The notes: a model not told the origin generated them from the sequence alone. 64,000 nucleotides of DNA from a virus (IMGVR_UViG_3300049044_000033:222796-286795); one strand, 5' to 3'; positions 3,542 to 52,938 are shown, counted from the first letter of the stretch. A program made the numbers and translations.

Positions 3542-3741
3542 AAGACACAGCGTCCCCCTTTAGGCTATTCATGTATGGATTTGAAAGGAGCGACCCTCTT
3601 CTCATCCCACAACACAAATCACACCCTCAATTGCGTCTGTGCTGTAAAGGGCAGACTATGCGCTGACCCCTTGGGAGTCAAGCAATTTTAACACAAATGA
3701 AGTGGAAAATTAGAACTTAGGAAAGCTATTAACCCTGTAAG

Positions 3742-3776
3742 AAGCTGAAATCTAAGCGTTTCGCAGCTTTTTTGTA
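3742..3776 (+). terminator. orphan rho-independent terminator (possible sRNA 3' end)
   Basis: AAGCTG...CAGCTT stem followed by TTTTTTG. No plus-strand CDS upstream. Confidence 0.4.
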
Positions 3777-3872
3777 GGTTAATGAAACTGTATTTTTAGA
3801 GTTAACAGGTAACTGGTGAGGTCCCTGTTAACTCTAATGATTAACTAAGGCGTTTCCTAGCTTATCAAGGCG

Positions 3873-4409
3873 TTAGTTTTGCGCACTTTTCTTGCCCGTG
3901 GGAGCAATAATCGCAAACAACTGCCGTTCGCTGCGTGCCACTGGGCGTTCAAACTTGAAATCCTCGAGATAGCTGAGGAATTCTTGCATTACAGATGCAC
4001 CAACATCCAAATGTGTAATCTCACGACCCTTGAACTTGATAACAACCTTGACTTTGTCACCTTCTTCTAGGAAGCCCTGAGCACGCTTTGCCTTGACCTT
4101 GAGGTCATTATTGTCTGTGGTAGGTCTCAGCTGAATTTCCTTCAGCTCAACTCTCGATTCCCTAGACTTCTTAGCAGCTTCCTTGGCACGACGACTCTCG
4201 TCATACTTGAACTTGCCATAGTCCAGAATCTTGCAGACCGGCATACCATTTGCCATGTTGATGGCAACTAGATCCAGTCCTACCTGACGGGCTCGGTTAC
4301 GAGCTTCAATCAGTGAGATAACACCAATCTGCTCGCCGGTGTCACCAATGAGACGTACTTCTTTAGCGCGGATCTGGTCGTTCACCGCATACTTAAAATT
4401 CACAGACAA
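3873..4409 (-). CDS. infC: translation initiation factor IF-3
   Basis: 178 aa. IRAKEVRLIGDTGEQIGVISLIEARNRARQVGLDLVAI...PVCKILDYGKFKYD and the C-domain KVVIKFKGREITH align along the whole length with bacterial IF3. Confidence 0.9.
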   Translation of the reverse strand: MSVNFKYAVNDQIRAKEVRLIGDTGEQIGVISLIEARNRARQVGLDLVAINMANGMPVCKILDYGKFKYDESRRAKEAAKKSRESRVELKEIQLRPTTDNNDLKVKAKRAQGFLEEGDKVKVVIKFKGREITHLDVGASVMQEFLSYLEDFKFERPVARSERQLFAIIAPTGKKSAQN

Positions 4410-4468
4410 TCGTTTCCTTTCATAATGGTAGAGTGGTCAATATATTCCAACCACTCTACCTGTCAATA

Positions 4469-5719
4469 TCATGCTACGTTGGGATTATCATACAGAACAA
4501 CAGGTTCTGCGTTACCCTCAATAACATCCTTTGTGACCTTAACAGTCACAGCACCCTGATCCTTAAGATCAGGAAGTTCGTATTGTACCTTGATGAGACG
4601 CTTTTCAATGACGCTCCTCAAGCCACGCGCACCAGTCTTTCGGGTGATGGCATCAACTGCCACTGCACGGAGAGCGTCTTCGTCAAACTCAAGAGCAATG
4701 TTCTCAAGCTGGAACATTTTGTTGAACTGCTTCACAAGAGCATTCTTAGGTTCAGTGAGAACCTTAATAAGCTGATCCTGGTCTAGCTCTTCCAAGCTAG
4801 TGATGACTGGTAGACGTCCGACTAGTTCAGGGATCAAACCGAACTTCTGAAGGTCTTCTGGTTCAACGCTACCTAGCAGCTTGCTAGACACCTTGTCCAA
4901 ATCATCCTTCACTGAAGCACCGAAACCAATGCTACCCTTGTTCTTGTTCATGCGCTTGGCAATGATTTCATCCAAGCCCACAAAAGCCCCGCCAACAATG
5001 AACAAGATGTTCTTTGTATTCACAACAGCCATTTCGGCGTTTGGATGCTTGCGGTTACCCTGTAGGGGAACTCGAACTTCACTACCTTCGATGATCTTCA
5101 GCAAAGCCTGCTGGACGCCTTCACCCGATACGTCGCGTGAGATGCTAGCCGAGTCGCCCCTGCGAGCCTTCTTATCAACTTCGTCCAAGTAAATGATGCC
5201 ACGCTCGGCCTTTGCAACATCATTGTCACAGACCTGTAGCAAGCGAGAGATAATCGTCTCAACGTCGTCACCCACGTAACCTGCTTCAGTAAGCGAAGTA
5301 GCGTCAGCGATTGTGAAGGGAACATCAAGCAACTTTGCGATGCTCTTTGCCATTAGGGTCTTACCCGAACCCGTTGGACCGAGGAGCAAGATGTTGCTCT
5401 TCTCAAGTTCAACGTCATCAACCACTGGGTTGGCAAGACGCTTATAGTGATTGTGGACAGCCACAGCCATGACCATTTTGGCATCATTTTGACCGATGAC
5501 ATACTGATCTAGGAATTCACGAATCTGACGAGGGCTTGGGATGGTGCCATCCTTAATAGCCATCTTAGTAGAAGATGAATCATCTTCTTTCAAGATATCA
5601 GCGCAGAGCTGAACGCAGTCATTACAGATGAAGACGTCAGGTCCAGCAATAAGCTTCTGGACATGCTCCTGCTTCTTTCCGCAGAAGCTGCAGGTTAGTG
5701 ATTTCTTATTCTCGCTCAT
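4469..5719 (-). CDS. clpX: ATP-dependent Clp protease ATP-binding subunit ClpX
   Basis: 416 aa. N-terminal C4 zinc finger (CSFCGK...CNDC), Walker A GPTGSGKT, ClpX-type AAA+ body including the LDEVDK Walker B region. Confidence 0.9.
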
Positions 5720-8246: not shown

Positions 8247-10118
8247 ATGTCCAACAATATTAAGAAACTTACAGATTACCAACATGCGCGTCTCAGGACA
8301 GAAATGTACCTGGGTAGTCGTGCGCCACATACACAGACGATTCTTCAGATTGTAGATGGCAATCCTCAACCTGTTGAAATGACCTGGGTGCCTGCACTAT
8401 ATACGGCTTTTCGTGAGGTTCTCGATAACGCACTCGACGAAGTGATTGGCCATGGACATGGTAGCACTGTTAGAGTTAGCTACAATCCTTTGAATCGTGA
8501 AATGTCTATCGAGGATGACGGTCGCGGTATTCCGATTGCATATGATGAAGCACATAAGATGCACCTAGCAACTCTTGTTATGACCGAAGCTCGTGCGGGT
8601 CGTAACTTTGAGGAACGTGGCGAAGTAGCAGGTACTAATGGTATCGGTGCTAGCGTGGTGAACTTCTGCTCCGAGTTTTTCCGCCTTGACATCCAAAAGG
8701 ACGGCGAACGTTTCCAGCAAGAGTTCACTCAGGGCAATGCAGTCTTTGGTGACGAGTTACAGTTTGGCAAGGCAAAGCTGTCCAAGAAGACAGGCACAAA
8801 TGGCACTAAGGTAACCTTCAAACTGAGTAGCGAAGTATTCCCTGATCTAACGCTGCCGGAAGAGTTCATTCAGAGTCGTGTTGTTGAAGTTGCAATCTGT
8901 AACCCACTGGTCAAGATCTTCTACAATGGCAAGCAGATCAAGGTTAAGCCACGAGCTGAGCAGACCCTCTTCCCCGGTAGGAAGCCAATATCCATTGAGA
9001 TCAAGGAAGGTAGCTTCCGTAGCCGTTTTTGGATTGTGCCTAACTGGACAACTGGCGGCGATCATGTTCACACCATCGTGAATAACATTCCGGCTTTCAA
9101 CGGCGGTGTCCACATCGACACTTTCCGTCGACTCTTCTATGGTAATTTGCTAACTGCGCTTGAGCGCGAAAGCAAGCGTCGTAAGCTCAGCCCGAACCGT
9201 AGTGATGTTACCGAAGGTGTTCTGATCTACAACATCACAAATATGCACGGTCCTAACTTTGATAGTCAGTCCAAGACACGACTAATCAATGAAGAAGTCG
9301 GTAAGACGATCAGGACCTATCTAGAAGATCCAGAACTCTACAAGGACTTCATCAAGAAGAACAAGGACTGGATTGAGGAAATCTATAAGCGTTGTGCTGA
9401 ACGCACGATGAAGAAGGATGCCGGTGATCTCGCTAGAGCGGCCAAGAAGAACCTGCGCAACAAGGTTCCCAAGCTTATGGACGCAAGTGGCAAGGATCGC
9501 TCTAAGTGTATTCTCTTCCTAGCTGAGGGTGACTCGGCTATTGCGGGCATGGGCAGCGTTCGTGATCCTGACTATCATGGCGGGCTTGGCATGAGGGGTA
9601 AGGTTCTCAACGTCAATGGCGAATCTCCTAAGAAGGTTGTCGATAACAAGGAACTTGCAGACATTATGAGCTGCTTGGGTCTGATTATCGGTCAGAAGGC
9701 AGACCGCAAGGAACTTCGCTACGGCAAGGTTTATGTGGCTCATGATATGGATCCAGACGGACTTAATATTGGCGCTCTCTTGATCAATTTCTTCCACACT
9801 TATTGGCCTGAGTTGTTTGAAGATCAGGATAATCCGTTCGTCCACATTTTCCGCACTCCCTTTATCATCGCAGAGAAGGGTAAGTCGCGCAAATACTGGT
9901 ATGCTCATAACTACCAGGACTTTAAGCCAGAAGACTACAGCGGATGGACGATCACTCGCGCAAAGGGTCTCGGCACTCTTACTCGTGAGGACTGGGAATA
10001 CTCTCTCAAGAATCCGGAAGTCTACCCAGTTGTGGATGATGGCAAGATGGGTGAGACACTGGACCTGATCTTTAACGGTAAGCGGTCAGACGATAGAAAA
10101 ACCTGGATTGGCCTTTGA
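8247..10118 (+). CDS. DNA topoisomerase II large subunit (T4 gp39-like, GyrB-type ATPase + TOPRIM)
   Basis: 623 aa. GHKL ATPase motifs (EVLDNALDE, GTNGIG) and TOPRIM LFLAEGDSAIAG. The TOPRIM region is contiguous with gene 39, so the T4 gp60 equivalent appears fused. Confidence 0.85.
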   Translation: MSNNIKKLTDYQHARLRTEMYLGSRAPHTQTILQIVDGNPQPVEMTWVPALYTAFREVLDNALDEVIGHGHGSTVRVSYNPLNREMSIEDDGRGIPIAYDEAHKMHLATLVMTEARAGRNFEERGEVAGTNGIGASVVNFCSEFFRLDIQKDGERFQQEFTQGNAVFGDELQFGKAKLSKKTGTNGTKVTFKLSSEVFPDLTLPEEFIQSRVVEVAICNPLVKIFYNGKQIKVKPRAEQTLFPGRKPISIEIKEGSFRSRFWIVPNWTTGGDHVHTIVNNIPAFNGGVHIDTFRRLFYGNLLTALERESKRRKLSPNRSDVTEGVLIYNITNMHGPNFDSQSKTRLINEEVGKTIRTYLEDPELYKDFIKKNKDWIEEIYKRCAERTMKKDAGDLARAAKKNLRNKVPKLMDASGKDRSKCILFLAEGDSAIAGMGSVRDPDYHGGLGMRGKVLNVNGESPKKVVDNKELADIMSCLGLIIGQKADRKELRYGKVYVAHDMDPDGLNIGALLINFFHTYWPELFEDQDNPFVHIFRTPFIIAEKGKSRKYWYAHNYQDFKPEDYSGWTITRAKGLGTLTREDWEYSLKNPEVYPVVDDGKMGETLDLIFNGKRSDDRKTWIGL

Positions 10119-14399: not shown

Positions 14400-15749
14400 A
14401 TGACTCAAAATAGCTCTGATTATATCCTAGATACTTCACGTGAATATTCTATCTACGTCTGCGAATCTCGCGCCATCCCTAAAGTGACCGATGGTCTTAA
14501 GGATGCCCAACGCAAAGCACTCTGGCTTGTAAAGGGCAAAGCTGATAAGATCAAGACTGTTTCCCTTGCTGGTGAAATGATCTCAAGCGGTCTTTACCTA
14601 CATGGCGACGCATCGGCAGCATCTTCGATCTCTATGTTGGCAGCACCCTATGTGAACAATATTCCTTTGCTAGATGGCATTGGATCGTTCGGTACTCGTG
14701 TTGCGCCCGTAGATGGCATTGGTGCACCTCGTTACACCTACGTAAAGCGCGGTAAAGCAGCTCAGGAACTCATGTTTCCTGATATGGATATTGTCCCAGT
14801 TAAGGAGAACTATGATGGATCTACCATCGAGCCTCAGCACTTTCTTCCTCTTATTCCCACGGTTCTTCTCAACGGAGTCAGTGGCATCGCTGTCGGTTGG
14901 AGCACTGAAATTCTACCCCGCAGCTTTAAGAGTCTCCTCGACGCTACTCTAATGATCTTGGATGGGAAGAAGATCAAGCGTATCCCTCCTTCCTACGAAC
15001 TCTACAAAGTCGGTGTAAAGCACCTTGAGGAAAACTCTTGGGAGTTTACAGGTAAACTCAACATCGTTGATACCTCAACGATCAAGATCACTGAGTTACC
15101 GCCTGAACTGACTTTAGAGAAGTTCAAAGAGCGTTTGAATACGTTTGAGGATGAGAACAAGATTTCCTCCTATACTGATCGCTCTACTGACACCATCGAT
15201 ATTACGATCAAGATGGCACGAGGCGCCTGTAAGGGTTGGCACGAAACTAGAGCTATTGAGTATTTCAAGCTCAAGCAAAAGAAGTCAGAGCGTATCGTTG
15301 TCATCGACTGGAATGGCACTTCTATTCGCCAATATGAGAACGCTGAGAAGCTCATTGAAGATTTCGTGGCTTGGCGTTTGAACTGGTATGTTGTTCGTTA
15401 TGAGAACAAGGTAGCCAAAGATGATTATGAACTTGGCTTCTGGAAGGGTGTGAAGCTTTGCTTTGATAGCAAGCTGCCTGCTCGTTTGGGCACAATTAAG
15501 AGTCGAGCCGAACTAGATGCTGATGTTCAGACCACTACTGGAAAGCTTAACTTAGATTCAAAGCGTATTGACCGCATCGTAAATCTACCTGCTCATCGCT
15601 GGACCAAGGATGCGTATGGTGATGTGTTGGCTAAGATCAAGGAACTTGAAGCCAATATTAAGGAATACAAAGCCATCCTCAAGGATCCTGAACGTCGCAA
15701 GGCAATCTACCGTGAAGAGCTCGAAGCTCTGAAGAAAGTTAGGTTTTGA
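14400..15749 (+). CDS. DNA topoisomerase II medium subunit (T4 gp52-like, GyrA-type cleavage/religation domain)
   Basis: 449 aa. N-terminus ESRAIPKVTDGLKDAQRKALW is typical of GyrA/ParC/gp52 with the winged-helix and active-site Tyr region. Confidence 0.8.
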   Translation: MTQNSSDYILDTSREYSIYVCESRAIPKVTDGLKDAQRKALWLVKGKADKIKTVSLAGEMISSGLYLHGDASAASSISMLAAPYVNNIPLLDGIGSFGTRVAPVDGIGAPRYTYVKRGKAAQELMFPDMDIVPVKENYDGSTIEPQHFLPLIPTVLLNGVSGIAVGWSTEILPRSFKSLLDATLMILDGKKIKRIPPSYELYKVGVKHLEENSWEFTGKLNIVDTSTIKITELPPELTLEKFKERLNTFEDENKISSYTDRSTDTIDITIKMARGACKGWHETRAIEYFKLKQKKSERIVVIDWNGTSIRQYENAEKLIEDFVAWRLNWYVVRYENKVAKDDYELGFWKGVKLCFDSKLPARLGTIKSRAELDADVQTTTGKLNLDSKRIDRIVNLPAHRWTKDAYGDVLAKIKELEANIKEYKAILKDPERRKAIYREELEALKKVRF

Positions 15750-22755: not shown

Positions 22756-23087
22756 TTGCCACCGAACGTGAGCTTAAACATCGCTGCGATATCCCCTTTA
22801 GACTTGGGAAAAAGGAAGAAGGTGAAATCCCGATAAGAGCTATCAAGCATCATGAGAACTGGCAGATTATGCTGTTCATAAAACTCAGTAGCCTCTGGTC
22901 CACAAATCCTATCGGCCGTATCCGGATAGTCCGTTCTCGGTCGAAGGACAGTGAGTTCGTATCCCTTAATTGGAACGACATGGAATTGTTGCTCCATAGT
23001 GGATACGAACTCAGTATAATCGCAATGGTCAGTCATTCGACCTCCAACAGTTCTTCCTTCGACTTGGACCAGCGCGAGAAGGTCCAA
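22752..23087 (-). CDS. FKLxWGG-family small protein (second cluster)
   Basis: C-terminus AAMFKLTFGGK. Confidence 0.5.
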   Translation of the reverse strand: MDLLALVQVEGRTVGGRMTDHCDYTEFVSTMEQQFHVVPIKGYELTVLRPRTDYPDTADRICGPEATEFYEQHNLPVLMMLDSSYRDFTFFLFPKSKGDIAAMFKLTFGGK

Positions 23088-24187
23088 GCCTGCTTCATGC
23101 GATTCAGCCTCTGACCCATTGCCGGACCAGGCTTCATACCAGTTTCCAGCAGGTCCTTGCCCGAAACCGGGAAGGTCGGGATCACGAAGTTCCTCGCATA
23201 GTCGGCCAGGATAGTTTCACCCTGAACTTCAGCAAAGCTTACAACATGATCCCGAGGAAATTCGTCCCGAGTCAGCAGCACTTCAATCTTCTGCTCATCC
23301 AGGAAGACACCCCGATTGCGGATCATATTCCGAACCTTGGCTTCCTCGTGCGAGCTCATCTTCCAGAACTTGAAGAACTTCTCTTCGTCAGAGCTGGCAA
23401 CCAGTGTCGACAGAGCAGCCAGGGCATCATCGGCGCGAGACAGTTCAGCAGGATTGAAGCGGAACAGACCCAGTGCCCGATTAACCCGAGTCTTGAAGAT
23501 TGCATCAACAATGCGAGTCCGACCCGGCATCTTGGGATCCAGCAGCTTCTGCATTTCCAGCCAGAACCGCTCGACACTAACGACGTTCAGCTTATCCAGC
23601 ACCTCACCCTCGGCGAAGATATCCAGCGTCTCCTGATCCATCTTAGCATCGAAACGGGCTGCGAACCGGAAGAAGCGCAGAATACGCAGGTAGTCCTCTT
23701 CGACCCGCTTGCGCGCATCGCCTACGAATCGAACCACACGATTCTTCAGATCTTCCTGGCCCTTGAAGTAGTCGAATACGTTACCTTCAAAGTCCATCGA
23801 CATTGCGTTGAAGGTCAGGTCACGTCGCTCTGCATCCTCTTCAAACGACCTCGTGAATTCAACCTCAGCATGACGACCGTCAGTCTCGACGTCGATCCGC
23901 AGCGTCGTAACTTCGAAGGGTTCTTTGTCCACAACCAGCGTAGCCGTGCCGTGCTGGATACCAGTGGGAATAAAGCCGAACTTGTTGGTATCGGCGATCA
24001 CCTTCATCTCATCCGGCGTTGCGTCGGTGCAGAAGTCCACATCCTTAGCTTCGACGCCCAGCATGGCATCGCGGACACAACCGCCCACAAAACGAATCTG
24101 GAAGCCTGCTGCTTCAAAAGCAGCACCCAGCTTGTTCGTTTCCGGGGTCATCAGTTTGTCCAGCACGTCGATCTCCTTGTTGTTCAT
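23033..24187 (-). CDS. tRNA nucleotidyltransferase (CCA-adding enzyme) / poly(A) polymerase family
   Basis: 384 aa. GGCVRDAMLG...DVDF head-domain motif of class II nucleotidyltransferases. The plus-strand 322 aa ORF opposite is a shadow. Confidence 0.8.
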   Translation of the reverse strand: MNNKEIDVLDKLMTPETNKLGAAFEAAGFQIRFVGGCVRDAMLGVEAKDVDFCTDATPDEMKVIADTNKFGFIPTGIQHGTATLVVDKEPFEVTTLRIDVETDGRHAEVEFTRSFEEDAERRDLTFNAMSMDFEGNVFDYFKGQEDLKNRVVRFVGDARKRVEEDYLRILRFFRFAARFDAKMDQETLDIFAEGEVLDKLNVVSVERFWLEMQKLLDPKMPGRTRIVDAIFKTRVNRALGLFRFNPAELSRADDALAALSTLVASSDEEKFFKFWKMSSHEEAKVRNMIRNRGVFLDEQKIEVLLTRDEFPRDHVVSFAEVQGETILADYARNFVIPTFPVSGKDLLETGMKPGPAMGQRLNRMKQAWTFSRWSKSKEELLEVE

Positions 24188-27764: not shown

Positions 27765-28208
27765 CTATATGGTTAAGCGAAACAAGACCATATGCTTCGG
27801 GGTATCGGACAATGGGGAATCAATCATCTGAACAATCAAAGGGGTGACCTTAATAGCTCGTTCGCTACAAACTTCATTGCTTCTCTTTAGGTCATTGCTG
27901 ACCATACCCAAATCAATCCAGCGACAATAACCCATATCTGTAAAGCTACTAGGTGATACCTTTATAGCATAGAGGTAAGCGTGAAGATACGCAGCAACTT
28001 TAGATTGCCCATGCTTCTCGTGAAGTTCCCAGAGGTTCCTACCCAATCGAGTGCAGGTCTTCTTCAATCGACCTTTCTCGTAAGGCGTGATACCTAGAGT
28101 GTTTACAGATACCTCTTCACATTCCATCTTGTCCTTGATATCAAGAGCTAGGTTACGGATAAGACGGAGGTCTTTGATAATAGTCTTATAGAGCTCTGCA
28201 ATATCCAT
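27765..28208 (-). CDS. hypothetical protein (147 aa)
   Basis: ORF. Its stop overlaps the upstream gene's start. Confidence 0.45.
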   Translation of the reverse strand: MDIAELYKTIIKDLRLIRNLALDIKDKMECEEVSVNTLGITPYEKGRLKKTCTRLGRNLWELHEKHGQSKVAAYLHAYLYAIKVSPSSFTDMGYCRWIDLGMVSNDLKRSNEVCSERAIKVTPLIVQMIDSPLSDTPKHMVLFRLTI

Positions 28209-28699
28209 TACCGGTATCCCAATTCCTTGATATCATTGCGCACCTGAGTCTCAATCTCGCCTAAGTCGTTAGAACCTTGCCAAGTGGATCGGCTCAAAGC
28301 CCGAGGATCATTGGCCGCCAAGCCAATACCCCAAACTCTGTCCCATGGGGACGCTTCCACTAGAGTCGTGCCATCCGTAGCCAGTAGCCAATTCAGGCAA
28401 TTGGTATCCTGAGTGAACTTGGCAAAGTTGGCTCGATATACGATCAGCTTCCGGTTAGCCTCCCATTTGGACGACACAAAACCTCGTACCAAGCGACCAG
28501 TGGCTTTCTGAACCTTGGGATTGTCACTTTTCATAATGATGTCAAGGGCGTCATCATCACCAAACAGTCGGGCTTTCTCAGCCATCATGAACTGTTCCGC
28601 GCAGTTGTATTCCACACCCTCTATGGTAAACCAGCTAGGATACCACTGGCTTCCAGGTCCACCATAGAAGAATGTGAATTGCTCGCTCACTGGCACCAA
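28208..28699 (-). CDS. NADAR / YbiA-like (DUF1768) domain protein
   Basis: FFYGGPGSQWYPSWF...CAEQFMMAEKARLFGD...LVEASPWDRVWGIG matches the NADAR family signature. Confidence 0.75.
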   Translation of the reverse strand: MVPVSEQFTFFYGGPGSQWYPSWFTIEGVEYNCAEQFMMAEKARLFGDDDALDIIMKSDNPKVQKATGRLVRGFVSSKWEANRKLIVYRANFAKFTQDTNCLNWLLATDGTTLVEASPWDRVWGIGLAANDPRALSRSTWQGSNDLGEIETQVRNDIKELGYR

Positions 28700-29130
28700 C
28701 CTGCCCGCTTGCCGCCAATATAGGGACGAGCATAACCACGAGCAATCAACATATTAGTGAGGCTCTCTCCGCCCACGAACACATCAGCATCAACGCGCCC
28801 GCCATACTTGTCCCACTTGAGGTTGGTCAGCGTAACCTTGCGACCAGCAGTGAGGATCACGCGAGTTGTAAATGCCTTGGCCGCTTGTGCGTTATACTTT
28901 TCTGAAGGGCACTTGCCGCGCATCTCAGGGGTATCAACACCACGAACCCGGACGCCAATCCGGCTCAGTTCAGGCGGCAGACCAGTCATCTTAATGTAAA
29001 AGGTATCTCCGTCATAGATACCCACAACATCGTAGGTATAGGTCGGAGCAGCGATTGCTGGGGTTGCGACAAAAGCCGCAAGAGCAAAAAGGGCGTTACG
29101 AATAATCTTCATAACACCCTTTTTACACAT
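28687..29130 (-). CDS. secreted staphylococcal-nuclease-like (SNase/thermonuclease) protein
   Basis: Signal peptide, then VVGIYDGDTFYIK...RVRGVDTPEMRGKC...YGGRVDADV...LIARGYA, the SNase GDT...R.GIDTPE pattern. Confidence 0.65.
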   Translation of the reverse strand: MCKKGVMKIIRNALFALAAFVATPAIAAPTYTYDVVGIYDGDTFYIKMTGLPPELSRIGVRVRGVDTPEMRGKCPSEKYNAQAAKAFTTRVILTAGRKVTLTNLKWDKYGGRVDADVFVGGESLTNMLIARGYARPYIGGKRAGWCQ

Positions 29131-29152: not shown

Positions 29153-30352
29153 TTAGCGGGCATTAAGCTGTGCCTGTCGCTGTGCTGCCGAGGCCAGCGA
29201 TTCCTTGAGCTTCTGCTCTGCTGCGATCAAACGCTGCTCAGCATCGGCGCGCTTGGCCTTACCTTGCTCTGCGAGATCGATGGACTCATTGATCGTAGCG
29301 ATCAAGAGTTCATTAGCCTGTTCCGCTGCCTCAACATCGAAGATGCCGCGCTCGATTTCCTTGCGGGCAACTGCGTTGCTAGTATTGAGCTGCTTCGCGG
29401 ACTGAACGATCAGCTCGTTGGTGAAATCAGTAGCCGTCTTAGTGGCCTTGCCGGCTTCTTCTGCGCGCCATGCTGCAATGGAAACAGCCATAGTGCGCTT
29501 CCAGAGGGGCAAAGTATTGAGCAGCTGACTCTGGATCTTCTCTGCGAGACCCTTATCATTTGCCTGGACGATGCGGATGCTAGGTAGCGCCTGGATGGTC
29601 AGGTTACGCGTCAGCAAGAGATCAGCCCGCTTGCGTTCCAGAGAATCACGAGCTTCGGTCAAGTCCCGCAGATCCTGCACATCTGCCATATCACCGCTGG
29701 CATCGGACTTAGCCTTGGCGGCCGGGATCATATTCGTGTTAACGTCCTCGAGCAGGTAGTCCATAGCGGCAATCTGCTCATCGAGCGAATCCAGCAGACC
29801 CAACGTGGCTTCGTATTGCTTGTCGAGTGCCACAATATCCTTGAGCATCTGGACGCGATGCCCTTCAAGAACGTTGTAGGTCTTGAGAATCTGACCTTCG
29901 ACCGTCTGGTAGCGATCCAGGAACTTCTGCAGGACGCTGGCCTTACCTAGCAGCTTTTGGAAGAAGCCAGGCTTCTGACCAGTAGCAAGAGCCGCAAAAT
30001 CCAGCCCCTTCATTTCGCGGACCATCTGGTTCATCGCGTCGCCGACTGGACCAGTATCCTTGGTACGAACGCCCTGGAGCATTTGTTCGGAAACTTGCGT
30101 AGTTGCCTTCTGTGCTTCAACGCCGAAGGTGATAATCGACTGACTATCCTTGAGGTTGATCTTGCTTGCGAGCTCCTTGGCACGTTCGCGCGACACCTTG
30201 TTGGGAATACGTCCGGCCTGACCATTGAGGCTGACAATATCCTGAGATCCGATCTCAGGCACGGTCAGAGCATTTTCAGCCGTCGGTGTGGGGAGAAGTT
30301 CACCGGTCAACGACGGGGTCGCCGTACCGATCTTTGTAGGATCACTTGCCAT
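29153..30352 (-). CDS. TelA-like (toxic anion resistance family) protein
   Basis: 399 aa alpha-helical protein. Family-level resemblance only. Confidence 0.4.
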   Translation of the reverse strand: MASDPTKIGTATPSLTGELLPTPTAENALTVPEIGSQDIVSLNGQAGRIPNKVSRERAKELASKINLKDSQSIITFGVEAQKATTQVSEQMLQGVRTKDTGPVGDAMNQMVREMKGLDFAALATGQKPGFFQKLLGKASVLQKFLDRYQTVEGQILKTYNVLEGHRVQMLKDIVALDKQYEATLGLLDSLDEQIAAMDYLLEDVNTNMIPAAKAKSDASGDMADVQDLRDLTEARDSLERKRADLLLTRNLTIQALPSIRIVQANDKGLAEKIQSQLLNTLPLWKRTMAVSIAAWRAEEAGKATKTATDFTNELIVQSAKQLNTSNAVARKEIERGIFDVEAAEQANELLIATINESIDLAEQGKAKRADAEQRLIAAEQKLKESLASAAQRQAQLNAR

Positions 30353-30354
30353 TT

Positions 30355-31071
30355 TTAGATTCCCTCGTTGTTGAGTCGGTTCTTCATAACAGTCATGTTG
30401 ACATCAAAGTCCATGACATCATTTGCCAAAAGCTTGTCGAGCAGCTTTTGGAAATTATCATCGATGGTGTCGAGCATTTCGTCGAACTGTGCCATCTGCT
30501 TCTGTGCTTCGAGATTGCGAGCACCGGTCCGGCTCAGCTGAGCATAGCCCTTGACTAGTGTGATCGTTTCATCCAAGTAACTGTTGAGCCAGCTTTGAGC
30601 CAGCAAAACGTCCTTGGGATCAACGCGGAAATCCTCGATGATCTTACGACCAATAGCATCAATATGCTTGATGCGTCGGATTGTGTTGGGGCTCTTGATC
30701 TGGGTAGCTTCCATGAGGATCCGGTCCAGCTTGTCACTGCCCATCTTGATCGCTTCCACGACCAGCTTCGTATCCACGCCCGAAGTACCTGCTGCGATAT
30801 CGTCAATATGCCGGTAGAGATCCTTAATGTCTTGTGCGGTTGCCGGGCGCCGACCAGGGAAGAAGTACCAAATCCCTAATCCAGTTGCTGCGCTCAACGG
30901 GCCAGCTAGTGCGAGATCACCGATAAAGGAAAGTGGGAAAGCAGCCATGCCGCTTACAAAGACACACGTTGCGCCTCCAAATGCTGCTAACTTACTCACT
31001 AGATCTTTGTTCATCGGTTCCTCGCTTAACACTGGCTCCTTTATAGCAAGGTTTACCAATGTGTCTACCAC
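30355..31071 (-). CDS. hypothetical membrane-associated protein (238 aa)
   Basis: ORF with hydrophobic N-terminal segments, coupled to its neighbours. Confidence 0.45.
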   Translation of the reverse strand: MVDTLVNLAIKEPVLSEEPMNKDLVSKLAAFGGATCVFVSGMAAFPLSFIGDLALAGPLSAATGLGIWYFFPGRRPATAQDIKDLYRHIDDIAAGTSGVDTKLVVEAIKMGSDKLDRILMEATQIKSPNTIRRIKHIDAIGRKIIEDFRVDPKDVLLAQSWLNSYLDETITLVKGYAQLSRTGARNLEAQKQMAQFDEMLDTIDDNFQKLLDKLLANDVMDFDVNMTVMKNRLNNEGI

Positions 31072-31129
31072 TGATTAGAAAAGAAAGGGCGACATTGCTG
31101 CCGCCCCTTCTCCTATAGGTTAGTCCAAC

Positions 31130-32869
31130 TTAGTCTTCTGGGTTAATACCAGCAAGCTTCTGGATCTCAGCCTTCTCGCTAGGAGCAAGAGGAGCCTCGA
31201 TTACCGTCTTAGCTACGCGACGTGCTGCTGGCTTTGCAACCTGCGGAGCACCCACGACTGCCAGACCTTCATCATCCAGAGGAGCAGCAACCGATTCGAC
31301 CAGACCATTAAGGCCACGGCTCAGGTCAACGCCAAGCTCGCGAGCCAGTTCGTCAACAACCGGAACCTGCAGTCGGTAGCCCAGCATCGAGTTGGTCAGG
31401 TCAGTAGCGAGGTTTCCTGTAGGAGCCGACTGACCGCCGAAACCTTCGCCATTGGAATGACCGCCCAGGCCACCCATCTGAACTACGCGGATGCTGTCGA
31501 CCTTCTCCATCGGCTTGGTCATCTTTTCCATGATGGCCGGCAGAGCTTCAATCAGAGCCTTGCGCATGTTGTATGCCATCTGGGCAGAGCTTGTCACGTT
31601 AGCAGCTTCGTTGAGGGCGCGCTGACCTTCCGATTCAACTTCGTAACGCTTTGCGTCAGCGTCGATGAGGCGTTCCTTGGCCTGTGCGCTTGCGTCAGCA
31701 GCAGCCAGTTCAGCTTCAGCACGGATACGAATACCCGCAGCTTCTTCCTGAGCCTTAGTCTCAGCCGCAATAACAGCAACCTTCTGGCTACGTTCTGCCT
31801 GTGCCTGTGCCTCAACAGTCTTCACCGCTTCAGCAGCCTTAACAGCTTCCGCGCGAGCAGCATCAGCAGCCGCACGGGCCTTGGATTCCTGCTCCGACTT
31901 CTCAGCAACCGCAATACGTGACTGCTGGCTAGCAATCTCGAGAGCCTGCGCTGCTTCAGTTTCGGCTACCTGGATAGCGCGCTTCTGTTCGACGCGAGCC
32001 TGCTCAGTAGCACGAGCAGCTTCAATTTCTGCCAGATCAGATTCACGCTTACGGTCGGCGCGGGTCTGGGCCAGTTCAGCTTCCTGCTGGGCACGACGGG
32101 TTTCAACTTCGCGCTCCTGCTCCAGGGTAGCGAATTCGTCCTGCTGCTTAATATCCAGCGAGCGCTTGTTGGCTTCGAAGTTCTTCTGCTCAATCGCAAC
32201 GCGGTTGTCAGCTTCGATGTCGTTACGCTCCTTCTTGCGAGTCTCAGTAACCTGAGTCAGCTTCGCAAGACCTTCAGCGTCGAAGGCGTTGTTGGGGTTG
32301 AAGAATTCAACCGAAGTCTGGTCCAGACCAGTTAGCGACACCGATTCAAGTTCCAGACCGTTCTTGCGCAGGTCTTCAGCAACAGTTGCCTGAACCTTCT
32401 GAACAAACTCAGCGCGCTTTTCGTGAAGGTCCTGCATATCCATACCAGCTGCCGCAGCACGGAGAGCGTCGATGAACTTGCCTTCAATTAGCGAAGCCAG
32501 CTGATCAGGAGCCAAGGTGCGGCGACCAAGCGTCTGTGCCGCAGCCGCAATGCTCTGCTCATCTGGAGCAACACGAACATAGAACTCTGCCTTCACGTCA
32601 ACGCGCAGACGGTCCTTAGTGATCAGCGAATCACGACCCTTACGTTCGACACCGAGACGCAGCGTCTGCATGTTGATGGGGATGGTTTCGTGGAACACTG
32701 GCAGAATAACAGCGCCACCGTCCTTAACGACCTTCTGTCCACCCATACCAGTACGGACAAAAGACTGTTCCTTGCTTGCGCGATGGAACATTTTGGTCAT
32801 GATCAAACCGATGACCATGAAACCTACTAGGAAGACGCCTAGCAGAATACCTGCAAATTGAAGAGTCAC
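31130..32869 (-). CDS. SPFH/band-7 flotillin-like protein (YqiK-like)
   Basis: 579 aa. N-terminal TM, SPFH core (VRTGMGGQKVV...), then a long Ala/Glu-rich repetitive coiled coil (AEAELAAADASAQAKE). Confidence 0.75.
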   Translation of the reverse strand: MTLQFAGILLGVFLVGFMVIGLIMTKMFHRASKEQSFVRTGMGGQKVVKDGGAVILPVFHETIPINMQTLRLGVERKGRDSLITKDRLRVDVKAEFYVRVAPDEQSIAAAAQTLGRRTLAPDQLASLIEGKFIDALRAAAAGMDMQDLHEKRAEFVQKVQATVAEDLRKNGLELESVSLTGLDQTSVEFFNPNNAFDAEGLAKLTQVTETRKKERNDIEADNRVAIEQKNFEANKRSLDIKQQDEFATLEQEREVETRRAQQEAELAQTRADRKRESDLAEIEAARATEQARVEQKRAIQVAETEAAQALEIASQQSRIAVAEKSEQESKARAAADAARAEAVKAAEAVKTVEAQAQAERSQKVAVIAAETKAQEEAAGIRIRAEAELAAADASAQAKERLIDADAKRYEVESEGQRALNEAANVTSSAQMAYNMRKALIEALPAIMEKMTKPMEKVDSIRVVQMGGLGGHSNGEGFGGQSAPTGNLATDLTNSMLGYRLQVPVVDELARELGVDLSRGLNGLVESVAAPLDDEGLAVVGAPQVAKPAARRVAKTVIEAPLAPSEKAEIQKLAGINPED

Positions 32870-32885
32870 TTAATTCTCCTATGAA

Positions 32886-33530
32886 TTAGATCTTACGCAC
32901 CATGTGGGCGTGATTAATTGACCTATGTGGACCGGTTAGCACCGCAGTTTCACCCACATCAATATTTTCTTCACCATCGGCAAAGACATAAACGTAATGA
33001 TCAGTACCATACTGATCGGTTACCCGGATTGAACCACTCTGGGTATTTGAGACTGGTCCGACAACAATAGGACCGGATAGATTAGATAAACTTTCCAGAG
33101 ATACCGCGGATGTAATATCTCTAGGCATTAATTGTGCAGCCACAATCGACCCCCAACGAACAAAGGGGAGCGTCAATGAGAACACAATAGGACAACTGAG
33201 CAACATAGGAGCATAGGCACCTGTCAGGCCTTCATAGACCCACTGTGCGCTATATCCAAGGATTGTGAACACTGTGCTGAAGATCACAAGGAAGATCATC
33301 ACTGGAACACTTCCAGGATTAAACCAACCTAAGATGTGAGAGTCTACTTCTAAGTAGTCGGGAATGCCGTTCCCGTTCAGATCCGCAGAGAAATCTATAT
33401 CATGATGGAATGAGCTAAAGCCCAAAATCAATCCGATGATTTCAAGAACCAAAATAGCACCGAGGAGACACGCACTCACAAGGAATGGTGTGTTGGCTTG
33501 TGCTAGTAAGAAAGTAGAAATGTTGTCCAT
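32886..33530 (-). CDS. NfeD-like membrane protein (YqiJ-like partner of flotillin)
   Basis: 214 aa. Multiple TM helices plus a C-terminal beta-rich segment, immediately upstream of the SPFH gene in the same orientation, as in yqiJK operons. Confidence 0.5.
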   Translation of the reverse strand: MDNISTFLLAQANTPFLVSACLLGAILVLEIIGLILGFSSFHHDIDFSADLNGNGIPDYLEVDSHILGWFNPGSVPVMIFLVIFSTVFTILGYSAQWVYEGLTGAYAPMLLSCPIVFSLTLPFVRWGSIVAAQLMPRDITSAVSLESLSNLSGPIVVGPVSNTQSGSIRVTDQYGTDHYVYVFADGEENIDVGETAVLTGPHRSINHAHMVRKI

Positions 33531-33565: not shown

Positions 33566-33865
33566 TTATTCTTTTGGTGGGAGAGAGTCAGCTAATCGTG
33601 CGAGGACGTTACCGTGACAAGGAGAGGGTGAACACCAGCAACCTAACTTTTTGCCTTTGAGTTCATAGAGGGCATCCATAAGAGCTTTTTGCTCTACTAC
33701 CCACTCAGCATATTGCTGGATACATTCTTCTCGGGTGCCGTCACGCCCGACCACGAAGGGATTGCCCCACTTTGTCTTCCGGTCGATACGAACGTCGTAG
33801 TGATCTTCTTTGAGATTAACTACCGAGGTTCCGGGCGGGGGCCATGAAAAGAGATCGTCTGCCAT
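33566..33865 (-). CDS. DUF4326-like small protein
   Basis: 99 aa. WGNPF...LGCWCSPSPCHG motif. Confidence 0.5.
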   Translation of the reverse strand: MADDLFSWPPPGTSVVNLKEDHYDVRIDRKTKWGNPFVVGRDGTREECIQQYAEWVVEQKALMDALYELKGKKLGCWCSPSPCHGNVLARLADSLPPKE

Positions 33866-34052: not shown

Positions 34053-34124
<72 letters not shown>

Positions 34125-34170
34125 CATGTTGTGTGCTCTCTTTGTAGCACCTACATACCTATTTAGCAAT

Positions 34171-34530
34171 TTAAACTTTGAACTCTTTCTTCAAAGCTTC
34201 TTCCATTTGAGAAAAGGAGAGTGGCTTTTCTAAGACTGTGAAGCCATGGAAGGCTTCCGGAAGCTTATGGGGATCACCGGTGCAAACAATCACAGGGGTG
34301 AGGCTATGCCGGAGGTGCTCTGCTACTTCTTCAGTAGTGCCATCTGTGAGCGTCACATCAAGGACCACCCCGGCGAATCTGCTATTTTCCACAAGCTTTA
34401 TGGCTTCAGGAACTGTTGAGGCAAATCCCGCTACTGTGAGACCGACCTCATCGCATACTTCTTCCCAGTAGATTTGAAGATATGCTTCATCTTCAATAAT
34501 CAGGACTTGTTTGCGATTTATTCCAAACAT
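34171..34530 (-). CDS. stand-alone response-regulator receiver (CheY-like REC) domain protein
   Basis: VLIIEDE acidic pocket, VVLDVTLTDG phospho-acceptor Asp region, PVIVCTG, LEKP Lys. 119 aa with no output domain. Confidence 0.7.
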   Translation of the reverse strand: MFGINRKQVLIIEDEAYLQIYWEEVCDEVGLTVAGFASTVPEAIKLVENSRFAGVVLDVTLTDGTTEEVAEHLRHSLTPVIVCTGDPHKLPEAFHGFTVLEKPLSFSQMEEALKKEFKV

Positions 34531-43388: not shown

Positions 43389-45011
43389 TTAACGATCGTA
43401 GGACGTCTTGGTGATCTTCTTGGATTTACCAAATTCCTGACGAGCAGCCTTCTTGAGCTCATCCAAGCTGCCATATTCTAGCTCAGCTTGCTTGATGATT
43501 GCTTCGTGGATTGTTTCGTTATCCTGAAAGTGCTTTTGACATACTGCCCTAATGGCCTGGTAGACACTCGCGTGTGGATTTGCCTTGATGGTTTCACGGA
43601 CAATACGTAGAGCTTGGGCCAACTGTCCTTGGGTCAAATTATGACCAGCAGCTTCCTCTAGTTCTGCCTCTTCCTCTTCAAGTGCTTCAACGAGCCCCTT
43701 AGACAGGGCCTCAAGACGGGCACGAGTTTCATGGACGCTAGGTGTACCCTGGTTCTGATAGGACCCTTGCTGAACGCCTGCGAGCTTCTGAACCTCTTGG
43801 ATCTGCTGAGAGAAGAATACATCATCAGTCGTATCTTCTTCGACCTTTTCTTCCTCTTCGACTTCCTCGTGGAACTGACGGTATTCACTAGTTGGCATAA
43901 CATCAATACCTAGGACGTAAGCGCCTTCCTTAATGTCGACTTCTACTTCTCCAGCAGCAACCTTGGCCGCGATAGAACGAGCAGCGCCATAATCAGCGAA
44001 GCCTTCCTGGATTAGCTGAACCTTAGTACCAGCAGTAGCCCAGCTTGGATTCTCAGCCGTGCCAATGTTTTCCATCATCTGGGTGTGGACCACCACAACA
44101 AAATTATTGGCCTCCATTACAGGCTCCTCCTCTGTTTCTTCTAGTGATTCCTCGATATCAGCCAATGGCATGTTATCGTTGTCGTAATCATCACGGATCT
44201 CTTCATTAAGACTCTCGTGGATTTCATCTTCAATATCAGTTGCGAGCGCATCTTGTTCCATCACATAGTTGAGAACTAACTGATGAAACTCTGCTTCGCC
44301 GAGTATGCCATTTTCCTGCATATATGGCGTATTGACATAATGTCCATAAGCACGGGAGAGCACGGTCTCAATTGGAAAGCCCTCATTATACCCTGACCAA
44401 TCCAAGCATTCTACCAAGTCACCCTTGTAGATTACATCACCGATAGACTGAAGACCTTCTGAAAGACTCTCGCTGATCTTCTTAGCAATCATAATTGGAC
44501 TCTTGATCCCAGTAGTGATCAGACCCTTCTTCTTGAATTCGCTGTAGGTCTTTTCGTCAGTCAACATCGCGCTGCTATTCGAGGCAGAGAATGCAATGAC
44601 CTGAAAGTGTTCCATATCGAACTCAGTGCAGCCACCATACATGACATTTGGCTTAAAGGTAACTTCCTTGAATGCCTTGATAGCTTCTCCTTTGCTCGAA
44701 TAACCAAGCATGACTTTGTCTTCGTCAAACTTGCTTCCATCAACAGTCAGCTGATGCATCACATAAACCCTAGCATCTTTCTTGGGGTTCTTCCTCAGAT
44801 AACAATCGAGGTGTTCTCCGTCAGGGCTATGAGTGCCTTTGATATAGCCATAGTGGGCTGGGATCTTTATAGCCCATTCCTCACCGGTCTTTTTGTTTTT
44901 GCCGCGGCGATAACCGTCGGCGGGCACCTCAACTGAGATATCTAGGCCTTCAAAATGTTGACGGCTGTGAAGTTTTGCCTCATTGAGGCTCTTGAAAAAT
45001 TCCATGCTCAC
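43389..45011 (-). CDS. protein with N-terminal inorganic-pyrophosphatase-like domain and long acidic C-terminal extension
   Basis: IPAHYGYIKGTHSPDGEHLDCYL and VYVMHQLTVDGSKFDEDKVMLGY parallel the family I PPase NYGYI..T...DGDPLDVLV and V..M.D..G.D.K motifs. Total 540 aa. Confidence 0.4.
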   Translation of the reverse strand: MSMEFFKSLNEAKLHSRQHFEGLDISVEVPADGYRRGKNKKTGEEWAIKIPAHYGYIKGTHSPDGEHLDCYLRKNPKKDARVYVMHQLTVDGSKFDEDKVMLGYSSKGEAIKAFKEVTFKPNVMYGGCTEFDMEHFQVIAFSASNSSAMLTDEKTYSEFKKKGLITTGIKSPIMIAKKISESLSEGLQSIGDVIYKGDLVECLDWSGYNEGFPIETVLSRAYGHYVNTPYMQENGILGEAEFHQLVLNYVMEQDALATDIEDEIHESLNEEIRDDYDNDNMPLADIEESLEETEEEPVMEANNFVVVVHTQMMENIGTAENPSWATAGTKVQLIQEGFADYGAARSIAAKVAAGEVEVDIKEGAYVLGIDVMPTSEYRQFHEEVEEEEKVEEDTTDDVFFSQQIQEVQKLAGVQQGSYQNQGTPSVHETRARLEALSKGLVEALEEEEAELEEAAGHNLTQGQLAQALRIVRETIKANPHASVYQAIRAVCQKHFQDNETIHEAIIKQAELEYGSLDELKKAARQEFGKSKKITKTSYDR

Positions 45012-51025: not shown

Positions 51026-51271
51026 ATGGGCGATCTATTTAAAAGTGTAGTCGAAATGATCGCGAAGGGCGAAGCAGGTTCACTGACGGCTATCCTTCTA
51101 GCTATCATCGGGGTTCTGGGATGGTATTGCTACCGTCTTATGAAGCAGGTGGAAAAGAAGGACGAGAAGATCTACAAGATCATCGACGAATATTCCAAGA
51201 ACAACATTACCATCACTGATGCGTTGAATGGTCTAAAGACTGTGTTGATCGAGATTAAGGCAAAGCTCTAA
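51026..51271 (+). CDS. small membrane protein
   Basis: 81 aa, one TM helix (SLTAILLAIIGVLGWYCY). AAGGAG RBS 8 nt upstream. Confidence 0.45.
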   Translation: MGDLFKSVVEMIAKGEAGSLTAILLAIIGVLGWYCYRLMKQVEKKDEKIYKIIDEYSKNNITITDALNGLKTVLIEIKAKL

Positions 51272-52938
51272 TGTGGTTCAATAAGGATAAAAAGGCTAAG
51301 AAGCAGCAAAGGGAAGCAGTTCTAAAAGCTGCGATGGAATCTAGCGAAGCTTTGGAAAAGGCCGCTAAGGGGACCATGAATCTAGCCGAAGATGTTACTA
51401 AGACTCTTCAGAGCCGAATTGATGATTATGCCCAGCAGATTGACCAAACAGCCCGCCTCCTAAGTGATGCCCTCATGCTTGTTGATGATCACGGAATCAT
51501 TGAAAGCTTCAACCAAGCAGCTGAAAGCATGTTTGGTCATGCTCGTCGTTCAATTAGAGGCAAGAATCTTTCTACCCTTTTTGAATTCCAACAAGACACA
51601 AAGATCACCCCAGACTTCATGGAAGAGCTGATGAACAAGGTGAGCGAGAATGATCTCTCTGCTACTGTTCATTATGAAGACTTTATGGGAGTCCGCAAGG
51701 ATGACACGAAGTTCTATGTTGATGTAGGCGTAAGCAAAATCATCCGTAGCAATTCAAAAGTCAAGTATATCATCCTGGTTCGTGACGTAAGCCAAAAGGT
51801 CATGAATAGCAAGATGCTAGAAGAATTAGCTCAGAGGAACCAAGAACTCCTAGCAACTATCGATGCTTCAAATACTGGGTTCATCATTATTAGTCCTGAT
51901 GGTAGTGACTTCAAGATCAACTTCGTGAATGAAGGCTTTAGTCGCCTAACTGGTTATTCGAGAACTCAAATACGTAACATGAGTCTAATGGACCTTCTTG
52001 GCATAGAGCAGACATTCTGGTCAGTGCGCCGCAGTCTATTGGAGCACGTAGAAGCACGTCATGAAGTTCAGCTAGAAATCGGCAACTGTCAGACTATTTG
52101 GTTCGACGTTCAGATTACACCGGTCTTTCAGAATGGTGTGTTGAACCAGTGGATTCTAGTATTCTATGATACTACCGCACTCAAGAAGGCCTATCACGAC
52201 CTACGCAAAAGCGAGTCGCACTTTAAGGCATTCAGTGACGCTAGCTCTGAAAGTATGTTGATTCACAACTTTGGCCAGGTGATTGATTGGAATGATCGAC
52301 TCAATAAGCTGACCGGCTACTCTGACGAAGAGATCGAGCAACTCGGTCCACTAGATTTGGTTCATCCTTTAGAGCGTGAAAAGATTCGTGACGAAGTTCA
52401 TCTTCTAGGTAGTAACAGCTACGAAACCCTCTTCATGACCAAGCAGGGAGACGTTCGAGAAGTAGCAGTGAATAGTCGTTCAATTGAATGGGAAAATGCT
52501 GACGCTCGTATTGCTATCGTGCGTGATGTAACTGAATACAAGGATATCGAGACTCAGCTAAAAACAGCTAGAGAGCGTTACCGCACTGTCATTGATAACA
52601 CAATCGACATGGTGATCTGCTTTAATGCCAATTTCGAGATCACTTTTAGCAACCAGACCTTCCGAGACTACTATGATGTAGAACTCGAAGATATTAATGG
52701 ATTCTCCCTCCTAGAGATTATCCCAGAGCCTGATCACCGCAAGTTCATGGAGTATATGTTGAGCATTACTCCTGATATGCAAGTTCGTCGTGGAATTCAT
52801 CGCGTTCAGCGTCACGATGAGGTTAGAATGCAGGATTGGATCGATCGTGGTATCTTTGATGAAGATGGCACCTTGATCGAAATCCAAAGCATTGCTCGAG
52901 ATGTAACGAGTCTACTTCCTCCCCCAAATCAGACTTGA
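51271..52938 (+). CDS. multi-PAS domain protein without recognisable output domain
   Basis: 555 aa. About four PAS-like modules (for example LMLVDDHGIIESFNQAAESMFGH, FIIISPDGSDFKINFVNEGFSRLTGYS, MLIHNFGQVIDWNDRLNKLTGYS, MVICFNANFEITFSNQTFRDYY). ATG overlaps the upstream stop. Confidence 0.65.
   Translation: MWFNKDKKAKKQQREAVLKAAMESSEALEKAAKGTMNLAEDVTKTLQSRIDDYAQQIDQTARLLSDALMLVDDHGIIESFNQAAESMFGHARRSIRGKNLSTLFEFQQDTKITPDFMEELMNKVSENDLSATVHYEDFMGVRKDDTKFYVDVGVSKIIRSNSKVKYIILVRDVSQKVMNSKMLEELAQRNQELLATIDASNTGFIIISPDGSDFKINFVNEGFSRLTGYSRTQIRNMSLMDLLGIEQTFWSVRRSLLEHVEARHEVQLEIGNCQTIWFDVQITPVFQNGVLNQWILVFYDTTALKKAYHDLRKSESHFKAFSDASSESMLIHNFGQVIDWNDRLNKLTGYSDEEIEQLGPLDLVHPLEREKIRDEVHLLGSNSYETLFMTKQGDVREVAVNSRSIEWENADARIAIVRDVTEYKDIETQLKTARERYRTVIDNTIDMVICFNANFEITFSNQTFRDYYDVELEDINGFSLLEIIPEPDHRKFMEYMLSITPDMQVRRGIHRVQRHDEVRMQDWIDRGIFDEDGTLIEIQSIARDVTSLLPPPNQT

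Follow-up and report, generated by a model that had tools for sequence, protein, structure and literature searches.

Introduction

Flotillins and TelA proteins are encoded in bacteria within two types of gene pair, yqiJ-yqiK of Escherichia coli and yuaF-floT of Bacillus subtilis on the one hand and xpaC-telA (yaaN) of Firmicutes (Listeria lmo1966-1967, Enterococcus faecium) and Proteobacteria on the other. Both types were found next to each other in IMGVR_UViG_3300049044_000033:222796-286795, a stretch of 64,000 nucleotides (nt) of viral DNA referred to here as the window, in which positions 29153-33530 hold a jumbo-phage module made up of two gene pairs of bacterial type, yqiJ-flotillin and xpaC-telA. 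In E. faecium, xpaC/telA have been related to daptomycin tolerance and binding and to the distribution of phospholipid microdomains, and the genes were found to be up-regulated by envelope-stress regulators (PMC6811118). In Listeria, both genes respond to a membrane-active bacteriocin by induction, and mutation of telA made the cells sensitive to nisin and 2-fold more sensitive to tellurite, by a mechanism that was stated to be unknown (PMC12791056). The YqiJ/YuaF-flotillin operons have been linked with PspA (PMC11237479), the SPFH protein YdjI was found to be required for the membrane recruitment of PspA and to influence fluidity (PMC8581546), and the FloA-NfeD system was associated with the stabilisation of unfolded proteins in stressed, ATP-depleted cells (PMC11222466).

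The phage yqiJ-flotillin pair resembles the E. coli and B. subtilis pairs in protein families and in gene order, and likewise combines a flotillin composed of an anchor, an SPFH domain, a Glu/Ala coil and a Flot domain with a partner of about three transmembrane (TM) segments and a putative OB-fold; it differs in being carried by a jumbo phage, in a coil that is 11 residues shorter and in being followed by xpaC-telA. The second pair shares families, order and a near-abutting junction with its counterparts in Firmicutes and Proteobacteria, but the phage XpaC has 219 amino acids (aa), compared with 285-307 aa in the closest bacteria, and its SPFH neighbour is a flotillin with YqiJ upstream, whereas the bacterial xpaC-telA has a Band_7_1/GYF_2 protein downstream. 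The B. subtilis pspA-ydjGHI operon and the proteobacterial (CesT)-PspA-YqiJ-flotillin loci follow the same logic of an SPFH scaffold combined with membrane partners and a soluble coiled-coil protein, and pspA-ydjGHI contains an internal terminator, as the phage module appears to do. A phage-shock system requires a PspA/IM30 protein (ESCRT-III fold), and none was found at the module, which is thus likened to the PspA-SPFH system and not counted as a member of it.

Among phages, gp491-494 of Sinorhizobium phage Phosso and uncultured contigs of ~460-480 kb present the identical gene order, with a putative terminator and a TAGAC element in the spacer, although their position in the genome differs; in GenBank the Phosso genes are labelled as hypothetical, SPFH domain-containing and toxic anion resistance proteins. 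The solo telA genes of Pectobacterium phage CBB, Xanthomonas phage XbC2, Erwinia phage Kaldavass and Salmonella phage SE_PL (PHROG 5890) also represent a phage-borne TelA in large genomes, but these proteins are 23-30 % identical to that of the window, no flotillin or YqiJ gene is found nearby and XpaC is absent or faint. The parts are consequently known: both types of bacterial pair have been described, phage telA has been catalogued and two of the Phosso genes have been labelled. No description was found in the literature, however, of the four genes as a conserved set in a clade of jumbo phages, or of the way in which this set relates to xpaC-telA-SPFH and PspA-YqiJ-flotillin in bacteria; searches for a paper on the four-gene module or on Phosso likewise returned none.

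The four genes and their products

The yqiJ-like gene (32886-33530), the gene of a YqiK/FloT-type flotillin (31130-32869), the xpaC-like gene (30355-31014) and telA (29153-30352) follow one another in the same orientation along the minus strand and are read in this order, with intergenic gaps of 16 nt between yqiJ and flotillin, 115 nt between flotillin and xpaC and 2 nt between xpaC and telA, an anatomy that is held with high confidence. A preliminary description of this DNA had reported an operon-like run of four genes at 29153-33530 and named the TelA, SPFH/flotillin and NfeD-like families; four open reading frames (ORFs) were confirmed there on the minus strand, and the assignments were backed by Pfam to a degree well beyond chance. 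The canonical nfeD-flotillin order that it reported was also observed, the yqiJ-like ORF directly preceding flotillin here and in the relatives, and the topologies suggested by hydropathy and AlphaFold models match the ones expected for the assigned families.

The yqiJ-like gene encodes a short NfeD-type inner-membrane protein of 214 aa, with ~3 predicted TM segments (hydrophobic residues 11-43, 66-97 and 106-124) and a soluble C-terminus predicted to be an OB-fold. The N-terminal part matched YqiJ_N (PF21001) in Pfam with an E-value (E) of 7.3e-22. Taken alone, the protein reached 19.9 bits against YqiJ_OB (PF07290), below the cut-off of 25.4 bits; this profile was matched by 12 of the 12 aligned members of the YqiJ family (E <= 0.01, best 1.5e-27), and the phage protein could be aligned over its full length, C-terminus included, with phage and bacterial YqiJ. 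In the window-type phage YqiJ, the loop after TM1 contains a D-L-N/D-G-N-G-I-P-D-Y-L-E motif (residues ~50-61; 33348-33383) that was likened to thrombospondin-type-3 calcium-binding loops and is absent from the aligned Phosso-type and bacterial YqiJ.

The flotillin (579 aa, GTG start) consists of an N-terminal anchor (residues 1-29, with a Kyte-Doolittle window maximum of 2.73), an SPFH domain (Band_7, PF01145; residues 37-183, E = 2.2e-18 in Pfam), an Ala/Glu-rich coil and a Flot domain (PF15975; residues 390-514, E = 6.4e-36 in Pfam). It matched the human flotillin-1 chains 9l3g and 9bq2, and about 8000 homologues were recovered in a protein search. The score against the FloT equivalog NF058507 of NCBIfam was 80 bits, compared with a cut-off of 700 bits, and the protein is for this reason considered a flotillin but not a FloT orthologue. 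The Ala and Glu fraction of the coil amounts to 0.46 over residues 241-400 and to 0.45-0.55 across residues 281-400. This coil had been described as unusually long; with an aligned segment of 160 aa in the window flotillin and most of its phage relatives, against 171 aa in bacterial homologues, it is rather a feature of the family. The length of the coil (residues 241-400; 31670-32149 in the window) varies in 11-residue steps, with values of 160 in most phages, 171 in bacteria and 182 in the homologue P0016. These steps look like changes of hendecad units, which could set the height of a cage.

The xpaC-like product was assigned to Halogen_Hydrol/XpaC (PF10112) with an E-value of 1.3e-28 and a score of 100.8 bits, against a cut-off of 29.8 bits. 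The AlphaFold 2 (AF2) model, with a predicted local distance difference test score (pLDDT) of 76, presents helices at residues 3-25 and 30-50, predicted to be two N-terminal TM helices, followed by a confidently modelled helical bundle at residues 82-216 that is expected to be cytoplasmic. The protein had been given 238 aa, as read from GTG 31071. A product of 219 aa starting at ATG 31014 is most likely, considering that the gene callers, Phosso and essentially all of the homologues (62 clusters, mostly of about 219 aa) begin at MNK, that GAGGA lies 6 nt upstream of this ATG, and that the alternative GTG is located upstream of the conserved promoter-like element described below.

The telA product is a soluble all-alpha protein of 399 aa that matched PF05816 over profile positions 2-331 of 332 (E = 1.5e-88) and phrog_5890 (E = 1e-39), with zero hydrophobic segments in the hydropathy profile. 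Its AF2 model (pLDDT 65) has a disordered N-terminus and two helices, at residues 140-219 and 222-301, that form an 80-residue helical hairpin. Sequence searches of the PDB found no solved relatives of TelA, XpaC or YqiJ. The possibility that TelA is an alpha-pore-forming toxin of the ClyA family was considered and dropped, as the hydrophobic membrane-inserting head or tongue that accompanies the long helical bundle in that family was not found. Similarly, the idea that the soluble domain of XpaC is a diverged TelA domain was rejected at an hhalign probability of 0.5 %.

The spacer between the two pairs

The 115-nt spacer between flotillin and xpaC contains an intrinsic-terminator-like hairpin with a U-rich tail (31075-31114, minus strand) and, upstream of xpaC, a sigma-70-like promoter-like element, GTAGACA-N16-TATAAA (31040-31068, minus strand). 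The hairpin was found to be strong, with a minimum free energy of -24.6 kcal/mol and a z score of -6.25, and none of 200 shuffled sequences was as stable. Equivalent hairpins with a U-rich tract were present in all seven of the phage loci compared, with energies of -21 to -32 kcal/mol and z scores of -4.4 to -7.1, again unequalled by any of 200 shuffles, and the sequences of their stems vary between phage lineages. The TAGAC of the promoter-like element was invariant in the same seven loci, with a TATA-like hexamer 16-17 nt further on. A generic promoter and terminator scanner returned a number of sites no higher than chance and missed the hairpin. No enrichment of TAGAC-N16-TATA was found across the window, so that a promoter function of the TAGAC element is only inferred. 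The hairpin and the TAGAC element are accordingly regarded as a putative terminator and a putative promoter.

The presence of the two elements between flotillin and xpaC suggests two transcription units rather than one operon. The operon-like run of the preliminary description holds within each of the two tight pairs and is likely interrupted between them. The whole arrangement, yqiJ-flotillin, terminator-like hairpin, promoter-like element and xpaC-telA, is kept across a diverse clade of phages of ~460-480 kb.

Distribution and conservation in phages

The phage origin of the window was confirmed by its replication and virion genes, which include both T4-type topoisomerase II subunits, a class I ribonucleotide reductase (RNR), a DnaB-type helicase and a virion structural protein, and by its jumbo-phage relatives. 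Flotillin, XpaC and TelA proteins identical to the ones of the window were found on a metagenomic contig of 462,455 bp, and further relatives of the module proteins on contigs of 182-481 kb, several of them in IMG/VR. The only cultured relative is Phosso (469 kb, PV764938), the virion protein of which is 39 % identical to that of the window; its gp491-494 correspond to the four genes of the module in unchanged order, with identities of 31 % for YqiJ, 52 % for flotillin, 25-30 % for XpaC and 44 % for TelA. Homologous modules had been suggested as a check on the preliminary description, and the order yqiJ-flotillin-xpaC-telA was observed in every locus of the clade examined (window, Phosso L001, L003, L005, L008-L010, L023 and L030-L032). 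Two genomic contexts were distinguished among these loci. In the window type, the module is located between a DUF4326 gene and SNase-NADAR genes, near RNR and glutaredoxin, whereas in the Phosso type it adjoins PAAR and tail or tail-fibre genes and a giant ORF.

Purifying selection acts on each gene of the module, with dN/dS ratios of 0.06-0.19 in the pairs with usable dS, although dS was often near saturation. Together with identities among phage relatives that fall to 25-52 %, this indicates from sequence comparison that the module is old and maintained in this phage lineage. In neighbour-joining trees with bootstrap, each of the phage subclades received 100 % support. The flotillin tree joined the two subclades at 64 %, apart from a bacterial clade of Sphingomonadales type that was itself supported at 100 %. 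The module was likely assembled once. A recent acquisition from a host, for which a comparison of GC content and codon usage had been proposed, received no coherent foreign signal: the GC content at third codon positions (GC3) of the four genes is 0.63, 0.58, 0.54 and 0.43, compared with 0.49 +/- 0.05 for the remaining genes, and the raw GC content of flotillin is raised by its Ala codons. The signal was considered inconsistent and was dropped as evidence in either direction.

When 50,697 phage records were searched with the module by megablast, zero matches were obtained, because the relatives are too diverged. At the protein level, full-length close homologues of the flotillin were found among cultured phages in Phosso only, whereas solo telA genes are common in jumbo phages. 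On other large viral contigs, yqiJ-flotillin stands by itself, or telA is solitary or accompanied by a faint XpaC. Two phage-like contigs, L024 (869,618 bp) and L052 (543,035 bp, IMG/VR), carry yqiJ-flotillin without xpaC-telA, with two Gad2-domain proteins, SspB, HNH endonucleases and DUF4376 as neighbours.

Bacterial counterparts

About 17 bacterial loci were inspected. The closest bacterial flotillins, ~52-54 % identical to that of the window, have yqiJ upstream and no xpaC or telA within 6-10 kb (L002, L026 and L062). The closest bacterial TelA proteins (41-46 % identical; Methylomonas, Methyloprofundus, Lamprocystis, Competibacteraceae and Roseospirillum) have xpaC directly upstream wherever upstream sequence exists, and no flotillin or yqiJ within 10 kb. 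The two pairs were thus adjacent in none of the bacterial loci sampled. In 10 of the 12 loci with the closest TelA, an SPFH gene of the architecture Band_7_1, Band_7 and GYF_2 was found directly downstream of telA (L011, L013-L020 and L022; about 10-12.3 kb in the loci with full flanks). Its product is an anchorless protein of ~370 aa (E down to 1e-102) that belongs to a family different from flotillin. A further bacterial locus (L063, 8001-13296) contains TerC, xpaC-telA, DUF2927 and then a Band_7_1/GYF_2 SPFH protein. No description of this xpaC-telA-SPFH triad was found in the papers searched.

Triads of PspA, YqiJ and flotillin were recognised in Solimonas (L062, 8606-11680) and on two IMG/VR contigs of 104 kb (L055, 6649-9707) and 241 kb (L059, 6630-9746), and some large phages appear to carry this PspA-containing version of the flotillin module. 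PspA was not found in cultured phage records with the query used, and a Band_7_1 query against cultured phages matched short unannotated fragments only. These arrangements suggest a two-by-two theme in which either PspA or XpaC-TelA is combined with either a YdjI-like SPFH protein or YqiJ-flotillin. Three of the combinations occur in bacteria, whereas the fourth, XpaC-TelA with YqiJ-flotillin, was found in this phage clade only among the loci sampled. As judged by gene content and order, the phage module represents a new combination within a recurring theme of SPFH scaffolds and predicted helical membrane-stress effectors.

Proposed function

The most likely of the functions considered would be to keep the inner membrane of the host intact during infection, a reading to which a rough probability of 45 % was assigned. 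A role in membrane stress or integrity is proposed because the bacterial counterparts of both halves have been linked to PspA and to the tolerance of envelope stress. Comparison of the loci thus favours protection of the membrane over the remodelling for replication or assembly and the superinfection exclusion that the preliminary description had suggested, neither of which received specific support from any finding. The flotillin/YqiJ assembly would act as a scaffold or microdomain that stabilises the membrane and its proteins, XpaC would serve as the membrane docking site of TelA, and TelA would be a helical stress effector, PspA-like by analogy and not by homology. Together, they would keep the membrane of the infected cell sealed and energised through the long cycle of a jumbo phage, in which genome injection, a heavy load of membrane proteins, early accumulation of holin and membrane-attacking abortive-infection effectors of the host would be the likely insults.

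Several observations weigh against this proposal. The function of the phage copies is inferred from association, and no structural similarity between TelA and PspA was found. The deletion of yqiK in E. coli had no clear phenotype (PMC2636767, PMC10434171). The two pairs could act independently, because a terminator-like hairpin lies between them and because either pair can be found without the other, in bacteria as well as in other phages. The TelA tree contained no sister grouping of the two phage subclades and a single origin was not resolved by it; moreover, many of the bacterial loci inspected came from one order, Methylococcales.

A bolder version of the membrane-protection reading is considered doubtful. 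According to it, TelA/XpaC would be a repair effector analogous to PspA and recruited by SPFH scaffolds, and a clade of jumbo phages would have joined it with flotillin/YqiJ into a self-contained membrane-repair kit that keeps the infected cell sealed and energised and, in particular, neutralises abortive-infection effectors that kill by permeabilising the inner membrane. If true, it would define a new, repair-based class of phage counter-defence and offer a first way into the function of the TelA family, which has long been enigmatic.

The module could alternatively be a membrane scaffold for the replication, assembly or lysis timing of the phage itself, in which flotillin cages gather or sequester holins, assembly factors or the host FtsH, in the manner of HflK/C, and TelA/XpaC are accessory. 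This is regarded as unlikely, although SPFH cages are known to enclose client proteins and FtsH is regulated by HflK/C (PMC10434171), and although the Phosso-type module adjoins PAAR and tail-fibre genes. The window-type module lies instead amid nucleotide-metabolism and accessory genes and not among structural or lysis genes, no syntenic client, holin or endolysin gene was found, and the reading would not account for the repeated association, in bacteria, of stress effectors with TelA/XpaC and with YqiJ-flotillin.

The terminator-like hairpin and the separate promoter-like element between the pairs, the existence of either pair by itself in bacteria and other large phages, and the unequal GC3 of the four genes could also be taken to mean that two unrelated accessory cassettes lie side by side with no functional meaning. 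This was judged to be quite unlikely, as the adjacency, the order and the spacer architecture are kept in both of the deeply diverged subclades at different genome positions, and xpaC-telA is independently linked to an SPFH gene in bacteria.

Ter/Tel loci have historically been tied to phage and colicin resistance. A role in superinfection exclusion or competition between phages, in which an altered inner membrane blocks the entry of the DNA of a second phage, would fit an early expression, with which the apparent sigma-70-like element and the early and accessory gene neighbourhood are compatible. It is nevertheless considered improbable, and somewhat more so than a chance neighbourhood of cassettes. 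No similarity to known exclusion proteins was found and the four proteins had zero matches in PADLOC-DB 2.0; the four soluble domains are predicted from flanking charges to be cytoplasmic and not periplasmic, where incoming DNA is intercepted; and the bacterial homologues are chromosomal stress genes. A tellurite or toxic-anion resistance set that aids the infected host under metal or oxyanion stress, as the family name, the PHROG label 'tellurite resistance' and the tellurite phenotype of the Listeria telA mutant could suggest, is highly implausible, given that TerC, TerD, TehA and TehB were not found in the annotated neighbourhood, the only part scanned for them, that the reported TelA phenotypes were mostly obtained with membrane-active agents and that the flotillin pair would be left unexplained.

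Neighbouring genes and other features of the window

The module is preceded on the minus strand by a DUF4326 gene (33566-33865; PF14216, E = 1.5e-28) with a gap of 35 nt to yqiJ. All window-type relatives have this gene directly upstream of yqiJ, with an identity of about 80 %, whereas Phosso-type loci lack it, and it is probably co-transcribed with yqiJ-flotillin. Further upstream, a tRNA-Thr (GGT) is encoded at 34053-34125 (minus strand). On the other side, telA is followed on the minus strand by the gene of an SNase-like nuclease (28687-29130; SNase, E = 9.6e-8), with an N-terminus that reads as hydrophobic and signal-like and a weak PADLOC match, and by a NADAR gene (28208-28699; E = 3.2e-43; PADLOC PDC-M42C, 6.8e-36). 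The two always follow telA in window-type relatives, the synteny being limited to this type, and may be co-transcribed with xpaC-telA because no terminator was found downstream of telA.

Several other features of the window were recorded. Of the long ORFs compared, the gene of a CCA-adding enzyme/poly(A) polymerase-family protein (23033-24187, minus strand) deviates most in codon usage and has the highest GC3 (0.65). The genes of the topoisomerase II subunits (8247-10118 and 14400-15749, both on the plus strand) are separated by ~4.3 kb of small ORFs with a GC content of 43 %, compared with ~47 % elsewhere in the window, which might reflect the insertion of a cassette. Signalling parts are encoded as well, namely a response-regulator receiver domain that stands alone (34171-34530, minus strand) and a protein of 555 aa that contains four PAS domains (51271-52938, plus strand); in the relative L023, a PAS-HATPase-receiver hybrid kinase was found at the syntenic position (3176-4894). 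Finally, a 540-aa protein (43389-45011, minus strand) has an N-terminal inorganic pyrophosphatase-like (InPase) domain that matches domains which, in PHROGs, form part of giant virion proteins and of DarB-like phage proteins.

Significance

TelA/XpaC proteins are widespread and their mechanism has been described as unknown, while bacterial flotillin/NfeD pairs have no agreed function. The comparison of phage and bacterial loci leads to the testable hypothesis that modules for membrane integrity are built interchangeably from SPFH scaffolds and helical effectors, either PspA or TelA. With Sinorhizobium phage Phosso, one member of the clade is available in culture, which makes the module accessible to deletion and localisation studies. 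Membrane-repair kits, if phages indeed possess them, would bear on the long infection cycles of jumbo phages and on the manner in which they may withstand the membrane-targeting defences of their hosts.

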